From: Dictyostelium discoideum
Taxonomy: Eukaryota
Assembly (NCBI GenBank): GCA_000004695.1
Contig: CM000152.2
Coordinates: forward strand, 4,576,001-4,640,000
Length of the DNA: 64,000 bases
Direction of reading: 5' to 3'
Part shown: in pieces, positions 7,540 through 53,268 of the stretch
How positions within the stretch are numbered: the stretch's first letter is position 1
How the letters are laid out: every line of letters starts with the position of its first letter
Made by a program: the position numbers and the translations under genes
The notes under the pieces: model-generated
Told to the model about the DNA's origin: nothing
Database searches by the model: none
Seen by the model: only the letters and a program-made list of their open reading frames with translations

Positions 7540-8991
7540 CATCATTAAAATCACTATTATTATTTAAAACATTACTATTATTATCATCATTATTATTATT
7601 ATTATTTAATTTACTGAAATATAAAACATCATTATCTTGATCAGTTTGAAGTACTTCAATTGCAGAAGCAACATCTTGATTATTTGCAAAGTGTTGATTA
7701 GAGTGAATTTTACATAAGATTTCAGCAGTAACTAATCTAACATTTGGTACTGGATCGTGAACCAATTTTAATAGAGTTGGTAAAAAGGTTTGTTCAAAGT
7801 AAATTGGATCTAATTGCTCAACGAGATAACCACAAATCTTTGTAAAAACCTGTCTATTTGAAAATGAAATATCAGTTCCTAAACATTGAATACTTTCAAT
7901 GGTAGAATTCTTTAATTGATTAATTTCTTCTAATGTTAATTCTGCTTCAGCTGTATTTGTTCCATTGCTGCTGCTGTTGCTACTATTATTACTATTATTT
8001 ACATCTGTATTTGTTCCATTGCTGCTGCTGTTATTACCGCTATAATTAACTTCACTATTTAAAATCTTTAAAATTAAATGACCAACGCTAGAAGCGGCAT
8101 ATGATCTAACCTTTGCAACAGAGTCATTTAATAAAGTAATTAAAATTGGTGTTAATTGAGTTAAATTTGTCTTTAAATTAAATAAGTCGCACATTTCTCC
8201 AATTTGTCTAAAAATAAAAATAAAAAAATAAATTAATATTATTCTATTATTGATGGTGGTGGTGGTTTATGTGTAGTTTTAAAAAAAAAATACAAACTTT
8301 GAAATTAATTTTCTAAATCTCCATTTACTTGGATCATTAACAAAACTATGAATGATTAATATGTAAGATTCTCTTTGAGCAGGTTCTAATGAAGCAAGGA
8401 AACCAGAGAAATGTCTAACAACACCAACTCTAACTTCATCTAAATCTTGTAAGAATAAATTGAAACATTGTACCAATGATGCTTTAGTTTCAGCTGGTCC
8501 TAAAATCTTTGCAATCTCATGAATTGAATGAGATAAAGTTCTTCTTACTTTCCACTTTAAAGAGTAATAATAATAAAAAAAAATAAAAAAAAAGGTAAGT
8601 ATTTGTATATTAAAAAAAGTTATTATTATTAAAAAGTTTTAATTAAAAAAAAGAGTAATAATATACAAACATTTGTATCTTTAACTAAAGTTAAATAAGT
8701 TTCTTTTAATTCAGGCCATCTTGAACTACCAACAGTGTATAATACAGCAGGGAAATTAAAAGCACAATGAGTAACCAAATCACTATCAGGGAATCTAATA
8801 GTTGATGGATTGATCATATTGGTATAGAGATTTAATAATTTTGGGGTAATTTGAGAACCTTCAAATGTTGCAATGAATGGTCCTAAATTTTGAAATGCTG
8901 TATTATTTACCCATCTTGATGACTATTATATATATATAATTAATATAAAATATATTAATATAAATATAAATATTTATTTTTACTACCAATA

Positions 8992-9043
<52 letters not shown>

Positions 9044-10436
9044 ATATATAGATATATTTACATCGTCACCGACAAACTCTTCAAATACAGGGATAAGTAT
9101 TGAATATCTTTCAATTGGAGAAATATTTTGACTAATGAAAATTAATACTTCAGCACAACCCTTTCTAACAGCCCACATTTCATCTCTTGATAATTGAACG
9201 AAAATTGGTAACTATATATAAATAAAAAATAAAAAAAAAATAAAAAAAATTAATAAAAAAAATTAATAAAAAATATTCACTATCATATGTGACATATGTG
9301 TTTATAGAATATAGTTACCAATAATTCAGTTGTATCTTTAACACCAATAGTTTGGCAAATACCACCTAAATTTAATGCGATTGATTTTCTAACTCTAAAA
9401 GAAAGATCATTTGATAATTTAACAATGAAAGGTAAAATTATTGATTTTGTTAATTGTTCTCCTAAAATTGGTGCTAAATTATGGCAAAGCTAAAAAGATA
9501 AAGAAAATAAAAATAAAATATATATATAATATGAATTAATAAAAGAACTGTATATTGTGGAGTGATACTATTTATATATAAGCATATATATATATATATA
9601 TTATTTACATTTGCAGCTTGAACTCTATGCTCTTCATCAGTTGAATCATTAACTAAACTTTTAATAAAAGGTATTAAATGAACTTCAATGTCTTCATGTC
9701 TAATGATTCTAGCCATATCTTGTAATGATTCAACGGCTGACATTCTAACTTGTGGATTTCTGTCAGTGGTTAATTGAGCTACAATTGGTAATAGATTTTT
9801 CAATACTTTTTGATAACCATCCTCTCTACCAAATTGAATATAACATTCACTAATTGATGGAATTTGTTCTACTAATGCTTGTCTAATCACTGGTTCATTA
9901 TCTGTTACTGCTTCCTCTATAAATGTTATTAATATTTCATTTGCTTGTTCAAATTGAATTCTAATTAAATCAGAAAATTCTCTAATAACATATAATCTAT
10001 ATAATAAATAATAAATAATAAAAAAAAAAATAATAAAAAATAGTGATGTTCAAAAAAAAAAAAAAAAAAAAAAAAAATTTATTAATACAATAAAAAATTG
10101 AATAATTAAAGGGATGAATGATTAATTGATAAATACCTATGAAGAACTAATTCACTTTTAACATATTTTTTAATTTTTTCAATTAACGGTAAACTGTCAT
10201 CAATAACGTATTCATTTCCATTTGATTCTTCTTTATTTAAATAAATTATTAAAAGATAAAATAAAAATAAAATAAAATGTAATAATAATATAAAAAAAAA
10301 TAAAAAAATAAAAAATAAAAAAAAAAATAAAAAAAAAAAAGTTAGTATGAATTATTTAAAATTAATGAATGTATATTATAACCATACCAATATTATCATA
10401 ATTATCTGCATCTGATAAACCAATAAAATCTGACAT
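7388..10436 (-). CDS. HEAT-repeat protein related to PP2A 65-kDa scaffold subunit A / PP4R1 (~727 aa), 8 exons: complement(join(7388..8207,8298..8553,8667..8922,9062..9211,9319..9489,9609..9996,10137..10230,10388..10436))
   Basis: Exon translations align along their length with PR65. Examples: 'QVRMSAVESLQDMA' ~ 'VVRDKAVESLRAIS'; 'MWAVRKGCAEVLIFISQ' ~ 'SWRVRYMVADKFTEL'; 'LVHDPVPNVRLVTAEILCKI…LQTDQDNDVLYFS' ~ '[20 protein letters not shown]…LTQDQDVDVKYFA'. Splice phases checked exon by exon. Donors are GTATGG, GTATTT, GTAAAT, GTAACT, GTAAAT, GTATAT, GTTTGT. Asn-rich C-terminal extension. Confidence 0.65.
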
Positions 10437-45317: not shown

Positions 45318-48300
45318 ATGGAACAATTATTAGAAGCAATTAGTGATGCAGTATCATCAATGGTATTATATTCAGTTGAAGCAGATGAAAGTAATGCAGC
45401 AATTCCAAATATTTTACCAGGAGCACAAGGTGTAAAATCAACGGTTGATTATTTAGTTGATTTAGCTTCAAAGAGTGCAGCATTATGGGACAACTTTAAT
45501 CAACCAGATATGAAAGTGAAAATGATTGACACATGTGATAAAATTAAAGAATCAACAGGATTCTTATTGGAATCAGCAACGATTCTCTCAAATATGCCAT
45601 TCAATAAACCAGCTAAAAAGATTCTATTAAAGGGTGCAAAGGGTATTATGGAGCATATGGTAGTACTATTGCAACAAGCCGATCTCTATGAGGTCACTCG
45701 TTTAATTAGATATTGCAGACGTTGCGAGAGTAAATTAAAGATTTTCATTGGTTTAGATCCTGGTGAAACCTTTTTCGCTACAGCTGCTCAAGATTTTGTT
45801 ACATCCACAGTTGAAGTTGGTAAAATCGTTACCAAACGTATTGGTGAAATCGATGACTACGCTCTAAAGAAACGTTTCGAAGAAGCAAATAGTTCTCTTA
45901 AAGTTGAAGTCCCAGTTGTCCTCCAACATTTTGCCTACTACCAAAGAGATGCTAACGATAGACATTCCTTTGATCAAGGTCATATCGTTGCTAAAACTAT
46001 CTTTTCAATCATTGATGAAATTATTACAGTCGCTCGTTTATCTGCAAAATCACCATTTGATTTATCAATGATTCAAGGTCTTGATCTTCGTGATGATGAT
46101 GATCTTAAAGATGTTAATATTTTAATTTCTCAAGAGAAATCAAGATTATTATCTGCAATTGAAGGTTAGTAATAATAATAATAATAATAATTAATAATTA
46201 ATGATTTTTTTTTATATATTAATTTTTATTTTTTTTTTTTTTTATTTTTTTAAAAAACATTTAGCTGGTGATGGTAAAGAAGCATCAAGAGCATTAAAAG
46301 CAATTAAAAAAGGATTAACAGATCAAATTGTTATATCAAAAGCATTAGCAAAATCAACAGATAATCCAATTGAAAAGAAGAGATTAGAAGATGCAGCAAG
46401 AAATGCAGAATTTATATTGGATAGTATTGTTGCACAATTTGGTCAAGCAGTTGAAGAATTATTATCAAGACCAGATAATTCAATACTTTTCAATAGATTA
46501 AAAGCAAATTTAGATACTATTATGGAGGCATCTGACCAAATGGTAACAAGTTCAGCACGTTTATCATCGAATGATGTTTCAGAGGCAACAAAGAATTTAG
46601 AAGAATTAATTGAAAAGGTTAGAGGTAATATATCAAAGAGTGAATTTGAAAAACTTGCAGTAAACATACCATTACTTCAACCAACATTTAATGATATTTT
46701 AGATATTGTCGATGGAATTGCAATGGGTACTCAAGACGCAACCATTAAACAAAGTCTCGAATTTGCAAGTAAGGAAGGTAGAAACAGAGGCTCAGAGATC
46801 ATTGGTAGATTGGAACAATTATCAAAACAACTCGAAAAGAATCCAAATAATAAACGTGAAATCGAATTGGAAATGAATCAATTATTGACTCAATTGAATC
46901 AAATTGGTAGAGATCTTTTGAAAGCCGTTTCATTGGGTACTTCGAATCAAATCTATGAAACTCATAAATCCATTGAAGAGAATTTAGCAAAACTTAAACA
47001 AGCCGTACTTTCAAATGACCAAAAAGAAGTCACCACTGCTTTACGTGCAATTAGAAAAGGTATGAATGATCAATTGAATATCGCCAAATCAATTGAACGT
47101 ATCACAGAGGACCAACAAATGAAAGATGCCCTACAAGCTGCAATCTTAAAGGCTGATGAAGAATTGAATGATTTAATTAAGAATCTTTACACTTCAACTC
47201 AAGAGGCAATGTTAGATTCATCAAATCCAAAAGCAATCGCTAAATTGGATGAATCAATTCGTGGTATCGATGAAATGAATCAAAGTTTTTTAGGTGCAGT
47301 TTCTCGTGATATCATGACTGAAAACACTAAACAAATGGAATTGAAATTGGCTCAATTGGTTCATTCATTGAAATCTGGTGATCAACAATTGACCGTTCAA
47401 GTTTTAAAAGGTGTCATTGAAGATATAAAGAAACAAGGTTTAGTAGCTGAATTGGCTTCAAATTCAATCAAAGACTCTGATGAACATCGTGCAAATCGTA
47501 TTAAAGAGAGAGCTGTCGATTTAACAAATACCGGTCCAAATTTGGTTAAATCAGTTAAAGCAAATCTAATTGAAATGAATTCTGATAATTTATCAGCATT
47601 GGTTCAAAATATTGGTCAAATTCGTGAAACAAATAAAGATTTAAATAATGCTGTTTTCATGAGTACCGAAGAGGAACTCTTGGAAAATTCAGCAAAGATT
47701 GATCAAGAGATGAGAAGAATTCAAACCGCTTTAGCCAATGGTAAACCAATTACAGAACAAGAGATAAACTCATTAATGAAGAAAATGAATAACCAAATTC
47801 GTTTGGCTCATCAACATGCTAAATCAATGAAAGATCCAAATTCAAAGAAAATCCTATTGGATACAACTGATAATTTAAATAAATTGGTATCATTATTGGT
47901 TGATGCTTGTAAACAATCAATTGATAATCCATCCGATGAGAAAGCAAAACAAAAAGTTAAAGATCTTTTGAATGAAGCAATCAAGGCCAACTTGGATTTA
48001 ATTGGTAATAGTTTCTCAACTGCTGAAGAATTGGTTTATGGTACTCCAAATCTTTTGAAATTAATTTCAAAACTTGAAGAGGCAATGGCAAATGGTGATC
48101 TCGATGAGATTAAACGTTGTTTCAAAGAATTGAATGAGGAACTTTCAAAACAACTATTCTTGGCTAGAATTGCTGAAGCTTCAATCACTGATCCAGAGAG
48201 AAAGAAACAATTATTAGAAGCAATTGCTGATTTAGAAAGATTACAAACTGATCTTTATCCATCGGTTATGGAATTCATTTCAAATCCAAACTCTAAGGAA

Positions 48301-50772
48301 GCTCGTGAGAATTTACAACAACTTTTAAGAAAATTAAAGAATGATGTTGAACGTGTTTCTTCAATCTCTTCAACCTCTCCTTCTGAACATCTTGAAAGTA
48401 AATCATATGCTGTCGCCAATGAATTGAATAAGGTTGAACGTGGTTTACATTCAAATAATCAAGCTGAAGTTAATGATGGTGCAAATAAAGCAATCGCTGG
48501 TATTAAACAACAAATTCAACTCTCTAAACATATCGCTGAACATACTGATAATATTGCTCAAAAGAGAGAAATCATCGATTTATCTGATCGTCTTGAAAAA
48601 CAAGCATTGGTTTTACAACAAGCTATCAAAGAATCATTGGCAAATCCATCATCTGCCGCTCATAAAGAAAAAGTTTATCAAGCTTCATGTGCTACTCGTA
48701 CTTTAATGGCTCAATTAATTGCTGCATCATCTTCAAAAGTACCAGAGGAACAAATTATTACCACTGCTCAATCAATTAAAAGAGATCTTGATAATTTATC
48801 CATTGCATTGGCAAAGGGTGGTAAAGATGCTGAAAAAGCAATTAAAGAATTTAAATCTGGCGAAACTAAACAAAAGATTGAATTATTGAAAGCCTATGCT
48901 TCAAAAGTTCAAAATCCACATCAAAAGAAACAAATCAATCAAGCAATTGCACAATTAGAGGAAAATGTTAAACAATCAATTGATTTCGTTGAGAAAACTA
49001 TTGGTACTACTACTGATAAGCCATCAACTGTTGAACAACAAAAGAAATTAAAAGAATTGATTGATAATAGTTCAGTTGCTGCTAATCAAGTGATTTCAGT
49101 TTCAACAGGTTCAAATGAAGATCGTTTACTTTCAAAAGCTGTTAAAATCAATGAAACCCTCGATAGAATTTCAAAATCTGCACATGGTGGTAATAAGGCT
49201 GATGTAGATTCAAATGTTAAAGAGTTGAGAGAAGAATTGGGTGATACCATTCAATTGATTAAACAAGCATCAGAGAATGTTAAAGATCCACATAAAAAAG
49301 TTGCCCTCAATGAAATTGCAGAAAAATTAAAATTAGTTTCACAACCAATTTCAAATGCTGCAAATAATACTATTTCAAAACCATCTGATAACGCTTCAAA
49401 GACTGAATTAAATAATCTCATCAATCAAACTAAAGAACTTTTGGGTAAAGCAGTTGTAAACTCTACAAACAATGATAATCCAACCCAACAATTGGATCAA
49501 GTACTTTATAAAGCAAGTAATGATATCAATCGTTTAAATAATGCAGTTGAAAGTGGTGATCAAAAATCAATTGGTGATTCATTAACTAATCTTAAAGACA
49601 CTGAAAATAGATTGAAAATACTTGGTAATTCATTACCATCCAATTCTGTAGAGAGTGAAAAAGTTAAGAAATCAATTCAAGAAATTAGTAATCAAGTTTT
49701 ACCAAGTATCATTAATAATGCAACCGTGATTTTAACTCAACCAAAAGATTCAAATAATTCTAAATCCATTGTTAATAAGGAATCAAAGAAAGCTTTATCA
49801 GATTTATCAAATGTTATCTCTATCACTAATAAATCACCAGAAGAGAAAATCATTGCAAATGGTACCGTTCTTCATCGTGATACTGATCAATTGAATACTT
49901 CCACTAAACAATCAAAAATTGATCCAACTCAAGTTCAAAATAATGTTGATACAATCTATAAAACTGTTGCTGAACAAACTTTATTAGCACGTGCTTTAGC
50001 TAATCAAACTTCAAATACATCAAGAAAACAATCTTTACAAGATAAATCTGATCAATTAGAGAAACTTTTACCAGAATTAGAAAAAGCCAATAAAGATATT
50101 CAATCATCCGCTTCAAGTGGTAAACCAGTTGATAAGCAAATGGTTGATAGACTTGATAAAATTACCAATGATATTAAATCAATCAATCAATCAATTGTTA
50201 GTGAAGCAATTAATGAAAAATTAGAGAAAGAACATAAAGAGAGAGAAATTCGTGAAGCCGCCTATAGAGAGGAACAAGAAAGATTAAGACGTGAAAAGGA
50301 AGAAAGAGAAAAAGCTCAACAAGATGAAGTTTTAGCTGCTGCTCAAAAAATCGCTGAAAGAACTAAAAATCTCAATAAAGATCAAACTCCAGAAGGTAAA
50401 CTTTATAGTACCGCTCAAGGTATCGCTGGTATCATGAGAGATCTTTCAATTGCTGCCACTACTAATGATAAGAAGGGTATGATCACTTGTTCGAAACTCT
50501 TGGCTGAACAAGTAGCTCTTTACCTTCAACAAGCTAAAGAAACCGCTTCTAAATGTACTGATCCAAAATTAAAAGAACAAATTATTACTGCTGCTCAAGC
50601 CGCTAAAAATTTCACTGTTCAACTTAAAATTATTGCTGCTGTTAAAGCCGCTAGCGATGATGATGATCCAAGTTCAAATAAACAACAATTGGTTAAATGT
50701 GCTAAAGGTTTAGCAAAAGCTATCGTTGGTACTATTAATGCTGTAGAAATTGGTCAAATTAGAGTAAAATAA
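45318..50772 (+). CDS. Vinculin / alpha-catenin family protein, unusually long (~1784 aa, extended helical-bundle rod); join(45318..46164,46265..50772)
   Basis: N-terminus 'AIPNILPGAQGVKSTVDYLVDLASKS…KKILLKGAKGIMEHMVVLLQQADLYEVTRLIRYCRRCESKL' aligns with the vinculin head ('[25 protein letters not shown]…[38 protein letters not shown]'). C-terminus 'IITAAQAAKNFTVQLKIIAAVKAASDDDDPSSNKQQLVKCAKGLAKAIVGTINAV' resembles the vinculin/alpha-catenin tail. Intron G|GTTAGT…TTTAG| (100 nt), phase 1. Confidence 0.65.
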
Positions 50773-51036
50773 AAAAATAAAAATTAAAATTAAAATAATA
50801 TATAAAAAAAAAAAAAAATGGATTATAAATAGAATTTCTGGATTTGGAAAATGTCCTAATTTTTTTTTTTTTTTTTTTTAACTAAAAGATATTAATTGGT
50901 TTAAAATAACTGATTGGTCACTAATTTTAAATATAAAAGTTGGTTGTATATAATTAAAAAAAAAAAAAAATTAAATTTTTAATTCAAAAAATCATGATAT
51001 TTTTCTTTTTTTTTTTTAATTATGACTCCCATAAAT

Positions 51037-51044
51037 TAATATTT
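51037..51044 (+). promoter_or_regulatory. DUSE-like upstream element 'TCCCATAA' (Dictyostelium ncRNA promoter box), ~60 nt upstream of the candidate ncRNA
   Basis: Matches the [A/T]CCCA[C/T]AA consensus. Spacing to the start of the GC-rich island (51101) is about 57 nt. Confidence 0.45.
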
Positions 51045-51100
51045 TTATTAAAACAAATACAACAAAAATTTTTAAAACATTATTATTAATTTGAGGAGAG

Positions 51101-51320
51101 ATTAAAGGTGCAGGGCGGTCAGCTACTTCGTTCATTAATTTAATTAAAATTTGCCGTAACTTGAAATTACCGTAATCATTTGATAACTTCTGTGTATAAA
51201 ATTGGAGTTCATATGAGGAGAATCAGATTCTGATTGATCTTTCGTGAACAATCCAAAAACTGACCCCGCAAACACTTAATAATAACTCCTTTTGGCAATT
51301 TGAATTTTAATCTTTAAGAC
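51101..51320 (+). ncRNA. Candidate structured small ncRNA (~220 nt), possibly SRP/7SL-like or snRNA-like. Ends approximate
   Basis: A locally GC-richer island in otherwise very AT-rich DNA, with no ORF. Its 5' end 'GAGGAGAGATTAAAGG' is complementary to its 3' end 'CTCC…TTTAATCT'. Internal hairpins: 'CCGTAActtgaaaTTACCG' and the perfect palindrome 'AATCAGattCTGATT'. 'GGTGCAGGGCGGTCAGCTACTTCG' is reminiscent of the SRP Alu-domain 'CCCAGCUACUCGGG'. 'GGCAATTTGAATTTT' is Sm-site-like. It ends at a T9 run (51318-51327), a Pol III-type terminator. Confidence 0.4.
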
Positions 51321-51624
51321 AAGTTTTTTTTTACTTTTTTTATTTATTTTTTTTTTTAACATTTATTAACTAAACGGATAAAGTAAATAAGTAATTAATA
51401 GGTTTATTTATGAATCTTTAATTTTTTAAAATAAAATTTTTATTTTGGTTTAGACAGAATTTTGATTATAGAGTTGTTTTTTAAAAAAAAATAATAATAG
51501 TATAAATAAAATATAAATTTAAAAAATAAAAAATAAAAAATAAATCAAATAAAAAAACAACTAAATTAAAATTTTAATTTTAGTTTATTTTATTTTTTTA
51601 ATTTTTAAAAAGTTATTTTATTTA

Positions 51625-53268
51625 TTATTTATTTCCAACACTAACAAGAGTATTTGGTCTAGATATTGATAAATGTTCAATTGATTTATCAAAATCACCA
51701 ACATAAATTGGTTCCCATTGACCAAAATAATCAATTTGTTGTTGATTTGTTAAATTTTTAATCCAATTTTGATTATGATCATCTTTATTATTTTGATTAT
51801 ACCATAGATTTTGATTATCTAAAACCACTTTAAATAAATCATCAACAGCTATTTTATGATGAACCTTAACATTATCAGTTAATAAATGTAAACCAGGATT
51901 TGTATTTACCTCCAATAGCATTGGTTCCATTTGATCATTCAATAAAATATCGAAACCTAATAATTCAAAAGAACCTTTATTATGACCATTTCTTGGCCAA
52001 CTTTTAATGGTTGTAATCACTAATTTCTTAATTTTTTCATTTAATTCATTTTCCCATTGAACTTTGTTTTCACTATCAGCTGATAAATAATCTTTAAATT
52101 GTGACAATGACCATTGATTACTAACTTTTGACCATTTATTTTTATCTTTTGAAAAATCTTTTTGAACTTGATAATTACTAAGATGGACGAATCTATCATT
52201 TAAATCATCATTTGAATACTCTATTGAACAGAATCTAAGATAACATTCTCTAAATTTAAAAATTATTAACGGATTTAAACTCTTTACCAAAACAAATTGT
52301 CTAATATCAAACTTTGTATTTTCAATGGTATATGGTGATTCAATATATTTTTGTACAATAAATTCATCATTTCCTTGTGCTGAATATTCAAGTAATAAAT
52401 TTAAATCATCAAAAATTCTAATACCAACTCCTCTTGCATTTGCACTTGGTTTACAAATCCAAATATTTTTATTACCATCAATATGATTTTGAATTGGATA
52501 AATTATTAATTCTTCTTTATCATTTTCTAATATTATTTCTTTTTCATTGGTTGTTGTTGTTGTTGTTGTTGAAATTATATTTTCACCATAATGATTATTA
52601 AAATTTAATAATTCATCATTTGAAATTCCAACTAATTTTTCATTATTATTTTTAATTTTATTATTATTATTATTATTATTTTTTAATCTATTGAAATCCT
52701 TTATAAATGCTTTCTTTTCTAATGGGTTTGATAAAATATATGATCTTGGGAATATTTTAGAAATTTCATCTTTTAATTCTTTATCTCCATTTTGATATAA
52801 TTTATTCATATTTTTTGTTAAACCTGATTTTGATCCAATTTCATCATGATTTATAAAATGATTTACAATTTGATCTTTATTTCTTACTCCTAACATTTCC
52901 CAACACCAACTCCATTTAATATCAAATCCTCTTTTTTTAATTATTATTAATATTAATTTTTATTTTATCTTTATATATTATAATAATTAATATATTTACC
53001 TTGATATTGATTTACTTTCAGCATAACCTCTTTGAATTAAAGCCTCTCTAATTAATGTATGATTTGACGAAATTTGATCAATTTTAAATATCTTTTTTCT
53101 ATTCCTAATTGACTCTTTAATCTTTTCAAGATCAAAAGAATTTTGTGAATCCGGTTGTTTGGTGGTAGCAGTTAAAGTTTCAACCACATCTTCATTGATA
53201 TCAGTTGAACTATTAATAAAAGTACAAATAAATAATATAAAAACAATTAACACCACTAATTTCATCAT
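51625..53268 (-). CDS. Tubulin-tyrosine-ligase-like (TTL/TTLL family) protein (~524 aa) with hydrophobic N-terminus; complement(join(51625..52930,53000..53268))
   Basis: TTL core 'KNIWICKPSANARGVGIRIF…FIVQKYIESPYTIENTKFDIRQFVLV…FKFRECYLRFCSIEYS' and 'FELLGFDILLNDQMEPMLLEVNTNPG'. Exon 1 'MMKLVVLIVFILFIC…LIREALIQRGYAESKSIS' is followed by the donor AG|GTAAAT, then a 69-nt intron ending …AAAAAAAG. Exon 2 continues in phase as 'A GGA TTT GAT ATT AAA TGG…'. Confidence 0.65.

Follow-up and report, generated by a model that had tools for sequence, protein, structure and literature searches.

A conserved, putative DUSE-directed small RNA gene between a vinculin-family gene and a tubulin-tyrosine-ligase-family gene in Dictyostelium discoideum

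We analyzed a window of 64,000 nt of Dictyostelium discoideum DNA, and all coordinates and window-wide counts given here refer to that whole 64-kb stretch. In the spacer between a vinculin-family gene (+ strand, stop codon at 50772) and a tubulin-tyrosine-ligase-family (TTL) gene (- strand, stop at 51625), we found what is probably an independent small noncoding RNA (ncRNA) gene on the + strand. [quoted passage not shown] By sequence comparison, the promoter element, its spacing, the predicted transcript body, and the T-run are conserved as one unit in four species. The anatomy of the gene, its conservation, and an evolution compatible with its structure are seen directly in the alignments.

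The DNA of the window is AT-rich, and the spacer holds an island with a G+C content of 0.26-0.36 over ~51050-51300, compared with 0.05-0.17 in both flanks, and no open reading frame (ORF) longer than 43 amino acids runs across it. These data are in agreement with an earlier note on this DNA, which had described a GC-richer island without an ORF and had placed a DUSE at about -60. The element is present as TCCCATAA and starts 66 nt upstream of the putative first transcribed base; in Dictyostelium ncRNA genes the DUSE lies ~60-63 nt upstream of the RNA start (PMC3188802, PMC7919456). DUSE-like octamers of the form [AT]CCCA[CT]AA are not enriched in the window (5 found versus 9.6 expected). The match at 51027 is the only one of the five that is followed by an AT-rich spacer of ~60 nt and then by a GC island, the other four lying in coding or otherwise unremarkable context. 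The alignments show (A/T)CCCATAA at a constant distance in all four species, with CCCATAA invariant. From the DUSE on, they run through CCCATAA, then AAAACAAA and the AAAA-TTTT block, and then TTGAGGAGA. The nearly invariant A/T-rich block within the spacer may act as a proximal or TATA-like promoter element.

For the comparison, we obtained the orthologous region from D. cf. discoideum, D. citrinum, D. dimigraforme, D. firmibasis, and D. purpureum via the TTL protein. Searches with nhmmer matched the element in D. cf. discoideum, D. citrinum, and D. dimigraforme with E values of 1e-46, 5e-23, and 5e-22, respectively. In all four species, it lies 300-420 bp 3' of the vinculin-family stop codon on the same strand, and the pairwise identity of the four RNAs is 68-89%. 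The unit retains 68-78% identity in D. citrinum and D. dimigraforme, where the adjoining spacer has diverged beyond alignment. Conservation across the four species begins at the DUSE, upstream of which only D. discoideum and D. cf. discoideum can be aligned.

The transcript most likely spans 51093-51293 on the + strand (201 nt) and is thus shorter than the earlier note had proposed; the island that it described is real, and its 3' boundary was set ~35 nt too far downstream. The blastn similarity to D. cf. discoideum and D. dimigraforme stops at 51293, and the match to D. citrinum ends already at 51223. A covariance model built from the four orthologues matches exactly 51093-51293 with 201 bits, a result that is consistent by construction because the model derives from these sequences, and it finds a single full-length copy in the window. 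Directly 3' of the CTCC/CTCTC terminal stem, all four species carry a T-run (T4, T4, T10, and T17), the aligned runs of D. citrinum and D. dimigraforme being T10 and T17, respectively. At least four T residues therefore stand directly at the RNA 3' end in each species, and such a T-run is the canonical terminator of RNA polymerase III (Pol III) (PMC7919456). Because the T-run abuts the terminal stem in four species, Pol III appears to be the better supported polymerase. A panhandle with a 3' oligo-U is a design typical of stable Pol III RNP RNAs.

Several features that the earlier note had assigned to the RNA lie 3' of 51293, in a flank without an alignable counterpart in the relatives. These include the end pairing between AGATTAAA and TTTAATCT, which we therefore do not retain, and the Sm-like AATTTGA (51299-51305), which is not conserved. 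The T9 that had been taken as terminator is visible in the sequence at 51324-51332 but is not part of the conserved transcript and could act at most as a fail-safe for termination in D. discoideum. When the earlier boundaries were used, the fold was no better than that of shuffled sequences (z ~ -1) on either strand.

At the opposite end, the putative 5' terminus coincides exactly with GAGGAGAGA (51093-51101), which occurs once in the 64 kb versus 0.07 expected. These are the first 9 nt of a 21-nt putative telomeric repeat, GAGGAGAGAGTCCCTTTTTTT, reported for D. firmibasis.

We derived a consensus fold with RNAalifold from the four orthologues and scored the individual minimum free energy (MFE) folds against shuffled sequences. 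The consensus contains 41 pairs, and standard pairs occupy 92.7% of the alignment cells, compared with 44-49% when the partners are slid by 1-3 columns. Double-sided changes occur at 4 pairs, and the covariation score of the alignment was attained by 6 of 500 shuffles. Once the boundaries had been corrected, the MFE z-scores of the four species are -2.4, -2.0, -4.1, and -1.0, and all four individual MFE folds share a common architecture that includes the terminal helix. The comparison of orthologous regions that the earlier note had suggested as a check thus supports the structure, through changes in four species that preserve it.

The two ends of the RNA form a bulged terminal helix (GAGGAG/CUCCUU, AUUA/UAAU, GGUG/CAC, GG/CC, a bulged C, and GGUCAG/CUGACC). 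The complementarity of GGAG and CTCC at the two ends, already noted earlier, is part of it: GGAG (51095-51098) pairs with CTCC (51286-51289), and this pairing is conserved. In helices 1-3, 94-100% of the cells are paired, and at columns 8/226 both partners change, from G-C to A-U. All four stem pairs of hairpin 1 are invariant, and its loop is nearly so. It corresponds to the CCGTAA/TTACCG hairpin of the earlier note, of which the 4-bp GTAA/TTAC stem holds; the two strands are not perfect complements, as a C.C mismatch follows and then one C-G pair. Helices 5-8, which make up hairpin 2, are 86-88% paired and show double changes at three pairs. Its tip is the perfect hairpin AATCAG-att-CTGATT (51221-51235) that had been recognized by inspection of the sequence. 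At the same place, D. citrinum carries a hairpin extended by 20 nt and D. dimigraforme an unrelated GGCC...GGCC hairpin.

Hairpin 1 is conserved in sequence and not just in structure, suggesting a binding site. Together with its 17-nt block, the conserved unpaired YUACUUCG and CUGyGUAUAAAAUUGG suggest candidate binding sites. The former contains CAGCTACTTCG, which the earlier note had likened to the Alu domain of the signal recognition particle (SRP) RNA; we find it to be a conserved single-stranded motif without a family match. The alignment contains indels of 1, 2, 8, and 20 nt, which make coding unlikely, and a coding micro-ORF was rejected.

Two copies of GUUCAU (51131-51136 and 51207-51212) are both complementary to a single GUGAAC (51244-51249). 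One of these pairings is the base of hairpin 2, and the other would join the UACUUCG region to the 3' domain. Judged from this complementarity, the second pairing could be an alternative conformation or a pseudoknot-like switch.

Table 1. Features of the putative RNA gene and its borders, in window coordinates
Feature	Position	Strand	Description
DUSE promoter element TCCCATAA	51027-51034	+	Starts 66 nt upstream of the putative first transcribed base (51093)
Conserved A/T-rich spacer block	51050-51078	+	AAAACAAAnAnAAyAAAA-TTTT-AAA; nearly invariant in four-species alignments
Putative mature or primary transcript, 201 nt	51093-51293	+	GAGGAGAG to CTCC-UUUU
Terminal helix, 5' strand	51093-51122	+	GAGGAG, AUUA, GGUG, GG, bulged C, GGUCAG; alifold consensus
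Single-stranded motif YUACUUCG, 3' of helix (contains CAGCTACTTCG)	51123-51130	+	UACUUCG invariant and unpaired in four species
Hairpin 1, 17-nt block CGUAAcUUGaAAUUACC	51155-51171	+	4-bp stem GUAA/UUAC (51156-51159 with 51167-51170), 7-nt loop
Mostly single-stranded motif CUGyGUAUAAAAUUGG	51190-51205	+	Conserved; leads into hairpin 2
Hairpin 2, long, irregular	51202-51256	+	UUGGA-GUUCAU...GUGAAC-AA-UCCAA; tip AAUCAG-auu-CUGAUU at 51221-51235
Terminal helix, 3' strand	51260-51291	+	CUGACC-CC, GCAAA internal loop, CACUU, UAAU, CUCCUU
T4 run	51290-51293	+	Likely stops Pol III and supplies the 3' oligo-U
Non-conserved 3' flank	51294-51332	+	Holds TTTAATCT, AATTTGA, and T9; no alignable counterpart in relatives

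From these features, we propose the following course of events. The DUSE and the conserved A/T-rich spacer would direct initiation near 51093, and transcription would stop at the T4 run, most likely by Pol III termination, leaving a 3' oligo-U. The RNA, presumably expressed in this form, would fold as a panhandle. A long bulged helix of its two ends would close a junction that bears the invariant small hairpin, the long hairpin with its variable tip, and the conserved single-stranded YUACUUCG and CUGyGUAUAAAAUUGG. The terminal helix and the oligo-U may stabilize the RNA through La-type end binding, and the conserved loops may be docking sites for a protein or RNA partner, so that the RNA would be the scaffold of a small RNP.

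To place the RNA in a known family, we searched Rfam 15 with the whole window at gathering thresholds and with inputs of 1001, 211, and 216 nt at E<=10. Neither the D. discoideum island nor its D. dimigraforme orthologue matched SRP, small nuclear RNA (snRNA), Class I, Vault, Y, RNase MRP/P, or any other family, and only noise was returned (STnc410, CRISPR-DR51, snoR77Y, SNORD58, and MIR1031). The RNA belongs to no Rfam family. The earlier note had counted the absence of an Rfam hit against its proposal, and no hit was obtained. Its suggestions of an SRP, U-snRNA, or Class I identity found no match at E<=10 with the 211-nt input and are not upheld. The core idea of a DUSE-driven, structured ncRNA gene with a T-run is borne out by the conservation in four species.

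The individual candidates were rejected as follows. No SRP covariance-model match was obtained at E<=10 with the 1001-nt and 211-nt inputs. For the spliceosomal snRNAs, there was neither a U1, U2, U4, U5, or U6 match in Rfam nor a conserved Sm site. Class I RNAs are ~50-60 nt long, with a short terminal stem (5' GTTGA) and the motif CCTTACAGCAA beside the 5' stem (PMC3188802, PMC7919456), whereas the candidate measures 201 nt and has neither that stem nor CCTTACAGCAA. As signs of a small nucleolar RNA (snoRNA), we looked for a C box (RUGAUGA) and a D box (CUGA) with a terminal stem, or for an H box (ANANNA) with ACA 3 nt from the 3' end. There was no conserved C box, and the snoRNA models scored 12-15 bits versus thresholds of 42-52. 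Just one ACA (51319-51321) precedes a T-run by 3 nt, and it belongs to the non-conserved flank.

Larsson 2008 is said to have screened for exactly such GC islands with a DUSE. Our literature search, by sequence or keyword, found no description of the RNA; the catalogues of Aspegren 2004, Hinas 2006, and Larsson 2008 were outside that search and may list the locus.

Several observations weigh against an independent RNA gene. The D. firmibasis vinculin/TTL spacer (182 bp, locus stretch 7660-7842) does not contain the element, and neither nhmmer --max nor the unfiltered covariance model found it in 31 kb of D. firmibasis and D. purpureum; its absence from that spacer and from the searched 31 kb suggests that the gene may be young or mobile. 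Only four closely related species enter the comparison, and the covariation is thin. The shuffle control can be exceeded by relatedness alone, helices 2 and 4 never vary and are hence uninformative either way, and the MFE z-score of D. dimigraforme is weak. As the DUSE is found before ncRNA genes of RNA polymerase II (Pol II) as well as of Pol III (PMC7919456), it is the T-run that carries the Pol III assignment, and T4 is a minimal terminator. The gene is known from sequence comparison, from which we infer its function in its entirety.

We looked further for deeper orthologues. A search with the vinculin-family protein yielded nothing but ~1-kb contig fragments, whose 3' flanks of 20-260 nt held no RNA. 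A metagenome scan for TACTTCG-N(12-42)-GTAANTTGNAATTAC gave 32 loci that were pattern-only matches, with a G+C content of 0.30-0.55, and no homologue.

The constant place of the unit downstream of the vinculin-family gene would also be expected of a conserved cis-acting element of that gene, whether in the 3' untranslated region (UTR), downstream regulatory, or acting at the DNA level, with no separate gene involved. The unit stays with the vinculin-family gene despite the insertion of a Ras-family gene in D. dimigraforme, and the alignment of D. discoideum with D. cf. discoideum is continuous from the stop codon to 51293. We nevertheless regard this explanation as improbable. The stretch from the stop codon to the DUSE is unconserved in the two more distant species, conservation starting at the DUSE, and AATAAA directly follows the vinculin-family stop codon. 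Moreover, the unit is bounded by a canonical ncRNA promoter motif, at the canonical distance, on one side and by a T-run on the other, and its changes preserve RNA helices. Another alternative is a non-functional relic, that is, a decaying ncRNA pseudogene or a compositional island whose likeness between species reflects recent common ancestry only. The closeness of the species, the presence of only four orthologues, the empty D. firmibasis locus, and the lack of paralogues in a covariance-model search of the window would all suit a relic. Such a relic is very improbable, however, given a unit that is 68-78% identical with sharp borders at the DUSE and the T-run next to unalignable spacer, hairpin replacements that keep pairing, and several motifs of 7-17 nt that are invariant or nearly so. 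A highly diverged universal RNA (SRP RNA, spliceosomal snRNA, RNase MRP/P RNA, snoRNA, or telomerase RNA) would account for a promoter like that of the Dictyostelium snRNA genes. It would also give a meaning to the 8-mer CAGCUACU, which also occurs in human 7SL, and to the 5'-terminal GAGGAGAGA with its identity to the start of the D. firmibasis putative telomeric repeat. We find this hardly credible, as no Rfam family rises above noise, AATTTGA lies outside the conserved RNA and no conserved Sm site exists, C/D boxes are absent, and the ACA at 51319-51321 is in the non-conserved flank. As to telomerase RNA, GAGGAGAGAGTCCCTTTTTTT and GGGGAGAGACA have been reported as repeats of D. firmibasis; the candidate has the sense of the G-rich telomeric strand, is C-rich only within the strands of the terminal helix, and offers no single-stranded complement to either repeat, so that it is not a conventional telomerase template.

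A vault RNA (vtRNA) is a further alternative to the independent family-less gene, prompted by an apparent likeness of the conserved block to the 5' part of human vault RNA. The RNA would then be the Dictyostelium vault RNA, or a vtRNA/Y-RNA-like Pol III panhandle, bound by the TROVE-domain TEP1 orthologue and partly packaged in vaults; as an amoebozoan vtRNA of ~200 nt, it would have exchanged box A/B for the DUSE and kept the panhandle and the UACUUCG beside the helix. Its architecture is that reported for vtRNAs, with the two ends joined in a bulged helix, the central region open, and a 3' oligo-U (UUUU) on an apparent Pol III RNA, although the bulged helix and oligo-U are common to Y and other RNAs and are not specific. 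UACUUCG stands just after GCGG atop the 5' helix strand, an equivalent place next to GCGG...CCGC to that in human vtRNA1 (GCGGUUACUUCGA); the 3' strand reads ACCCCGC compared with human ACCCGC, and the D. dimigraforme RNA and human vtRNA1-1 have the 10-mer GTTACTTCGA in common. The host has vaults, with published MVPA and MVPB, a PARP that carries the annotation PARP4/vault PARP, and a TEP1 orthologue (Q54CB5) labeled by MVPA-TurboID, and the vault literature examined names no vault RNA for D. discoideum. Published trypanosomatid vtRNAs reach ~190 nt and were recognized by short terminal-helix similarities together with TEP1 co-immunoprecipitation. Against these points, the Rfam Vault model (RF00006) gave no match at E<=10 with the 211-nt and 216-nt inputs (D. 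discoideum and D. dimigraforme). The local-alignment scores versus human vtRNA1-1, 1-2, and 1-3 (sequences from PMC10087102) were equaled by 2-29% of dinucleotide shuffles, within whose range the sequence similarity thus falls, and the sharing of the GTTACTTCGA 10-mer is not significant by the same standard. The best box A (TRGCNNAGYGG) and box B (GGTTCGANTCC) candidates had 2-3 and 4-5 mismatches at non-homologous positions, whereas the same scoring gave 0 and 2 mismatches on human vtRNA1-1. The candidate is also about twice as long as the vertebrate vtRNAs and has an external DUSE in place of box A/B. Similarly short matches also exist to hY1 and 7SL, so that the look-elsewhere effect is large and counts against a vault RNA. 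Taken together, we consider a vault RNA unlikely, if still worth bearing in mind. A vtRNA-like pairing of UUCG(U/A) with CGAAC can be drawn in some species solely by shifting the register, and it would compete with the pairing at the foot of hairpin 2.

Among known systems, the candidate resembles the DUSE-driven ncRNA genes of Dictyostelium (U1-U6, Class I/II) in that [AT]CCCA[CT]AA precedes the RNA start by ~60 nt, the gene stands out compactly from AT-rich spacer by its higher G+C content, and a T-run comes after it, as in many Class I and other Pol III genes. Its RNA body matches none of these, and it differs from Class I RNAs and Dictyostelium snRNAs in the features given above. With the Y RNAs, ligands of the TROVE protein Ro60, it shares the Pol III panhandle design, the bulged terminal stem, the 3' oligo-U, and a variable internal loop, but it has no Rfam Y_RNA match and its bulged-C helix does not occupy the position bound by Ro. 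Y RNAs have about half the length of the candidate. Type-3 Pol III genes such as U6 and 7SK likewise combine an upstream promoter element and a T-run with no recognizable internal boxes, yet neither matches the candidate in sequence or structure.

The surroundings of the gene showed some further features. The upstream neighbor is seen as a single ORF of 1523 amino acids (46201-50772) with a C-terminal vinculin/talin-type domain (PF01044); annotated vinculin-family orthologues have ~1780 amino acids, indicating that the gene start lies further upstream, past at least one intron. Immediately 3' of this ORF, D. discoideum 50773-50900 and the D. cf. discoideum locus at 8560-8692 share short blocks such as GATTATAAATAGAATTTCTGG and ATTAATTGGTTTAAAATAACTGAT. 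These blocks are not conserved in the two more distant species and probably belong to the vinculin-family 3' UTR. In D. dimigraforme, the inserted Ras-family gene mentioned above separates the TTL gene from the RNA gene (locus stretch 7873-9629), and in D. purpureum the vinculin-family and TTL genes do not lie side by side in this arrangement any more. Rearrangements have altered the vinculin/TTL spacer among very close species.

Elsewhere in the window, Rfam and ARAGORN identified only two genes, both for tRNA-Leu(UAA), at 30291-30373 (+) and 37433-37515 (-). They lie within an inverted pair (30246-30380 and 37426-37560) whose 135-nt arms are 94% complementary and 7 kb apart. A further inverted pair of 62 nt is found at 29822-29883 and 37734-37795, and both pairs together suggest a larger inverted duplication.

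Most of the catalogued Dictyostelium small RNAs that exceed Class I in length are universal housekeeping species. On the strength of the alignments, the candidate most likely joins the DUSE-driven small ncRNA genes as a conserved, putative RNA of ~200 nt without a family. It is present at this locus in D. discoideum, D. citrinum, and D. dimigraforme and not in the syntenic D. firmibasis spacer; if it is a young, clade-specific RNA, it records how Pol III-type genes arise or move between very closely related species. If it were a partner of TEP1 or the vault, it would provide the RNA component still missing in an organism where vault genetics and in situ structural work are under way, and it would carry the evolution of vault RNAs into the Amoebozoa. 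In a genetic model organism such as Dictyostelium, a structured, family-less RNA of ~200 nt that is conserved and has its own promoter element offers a concrete target for knock-out.

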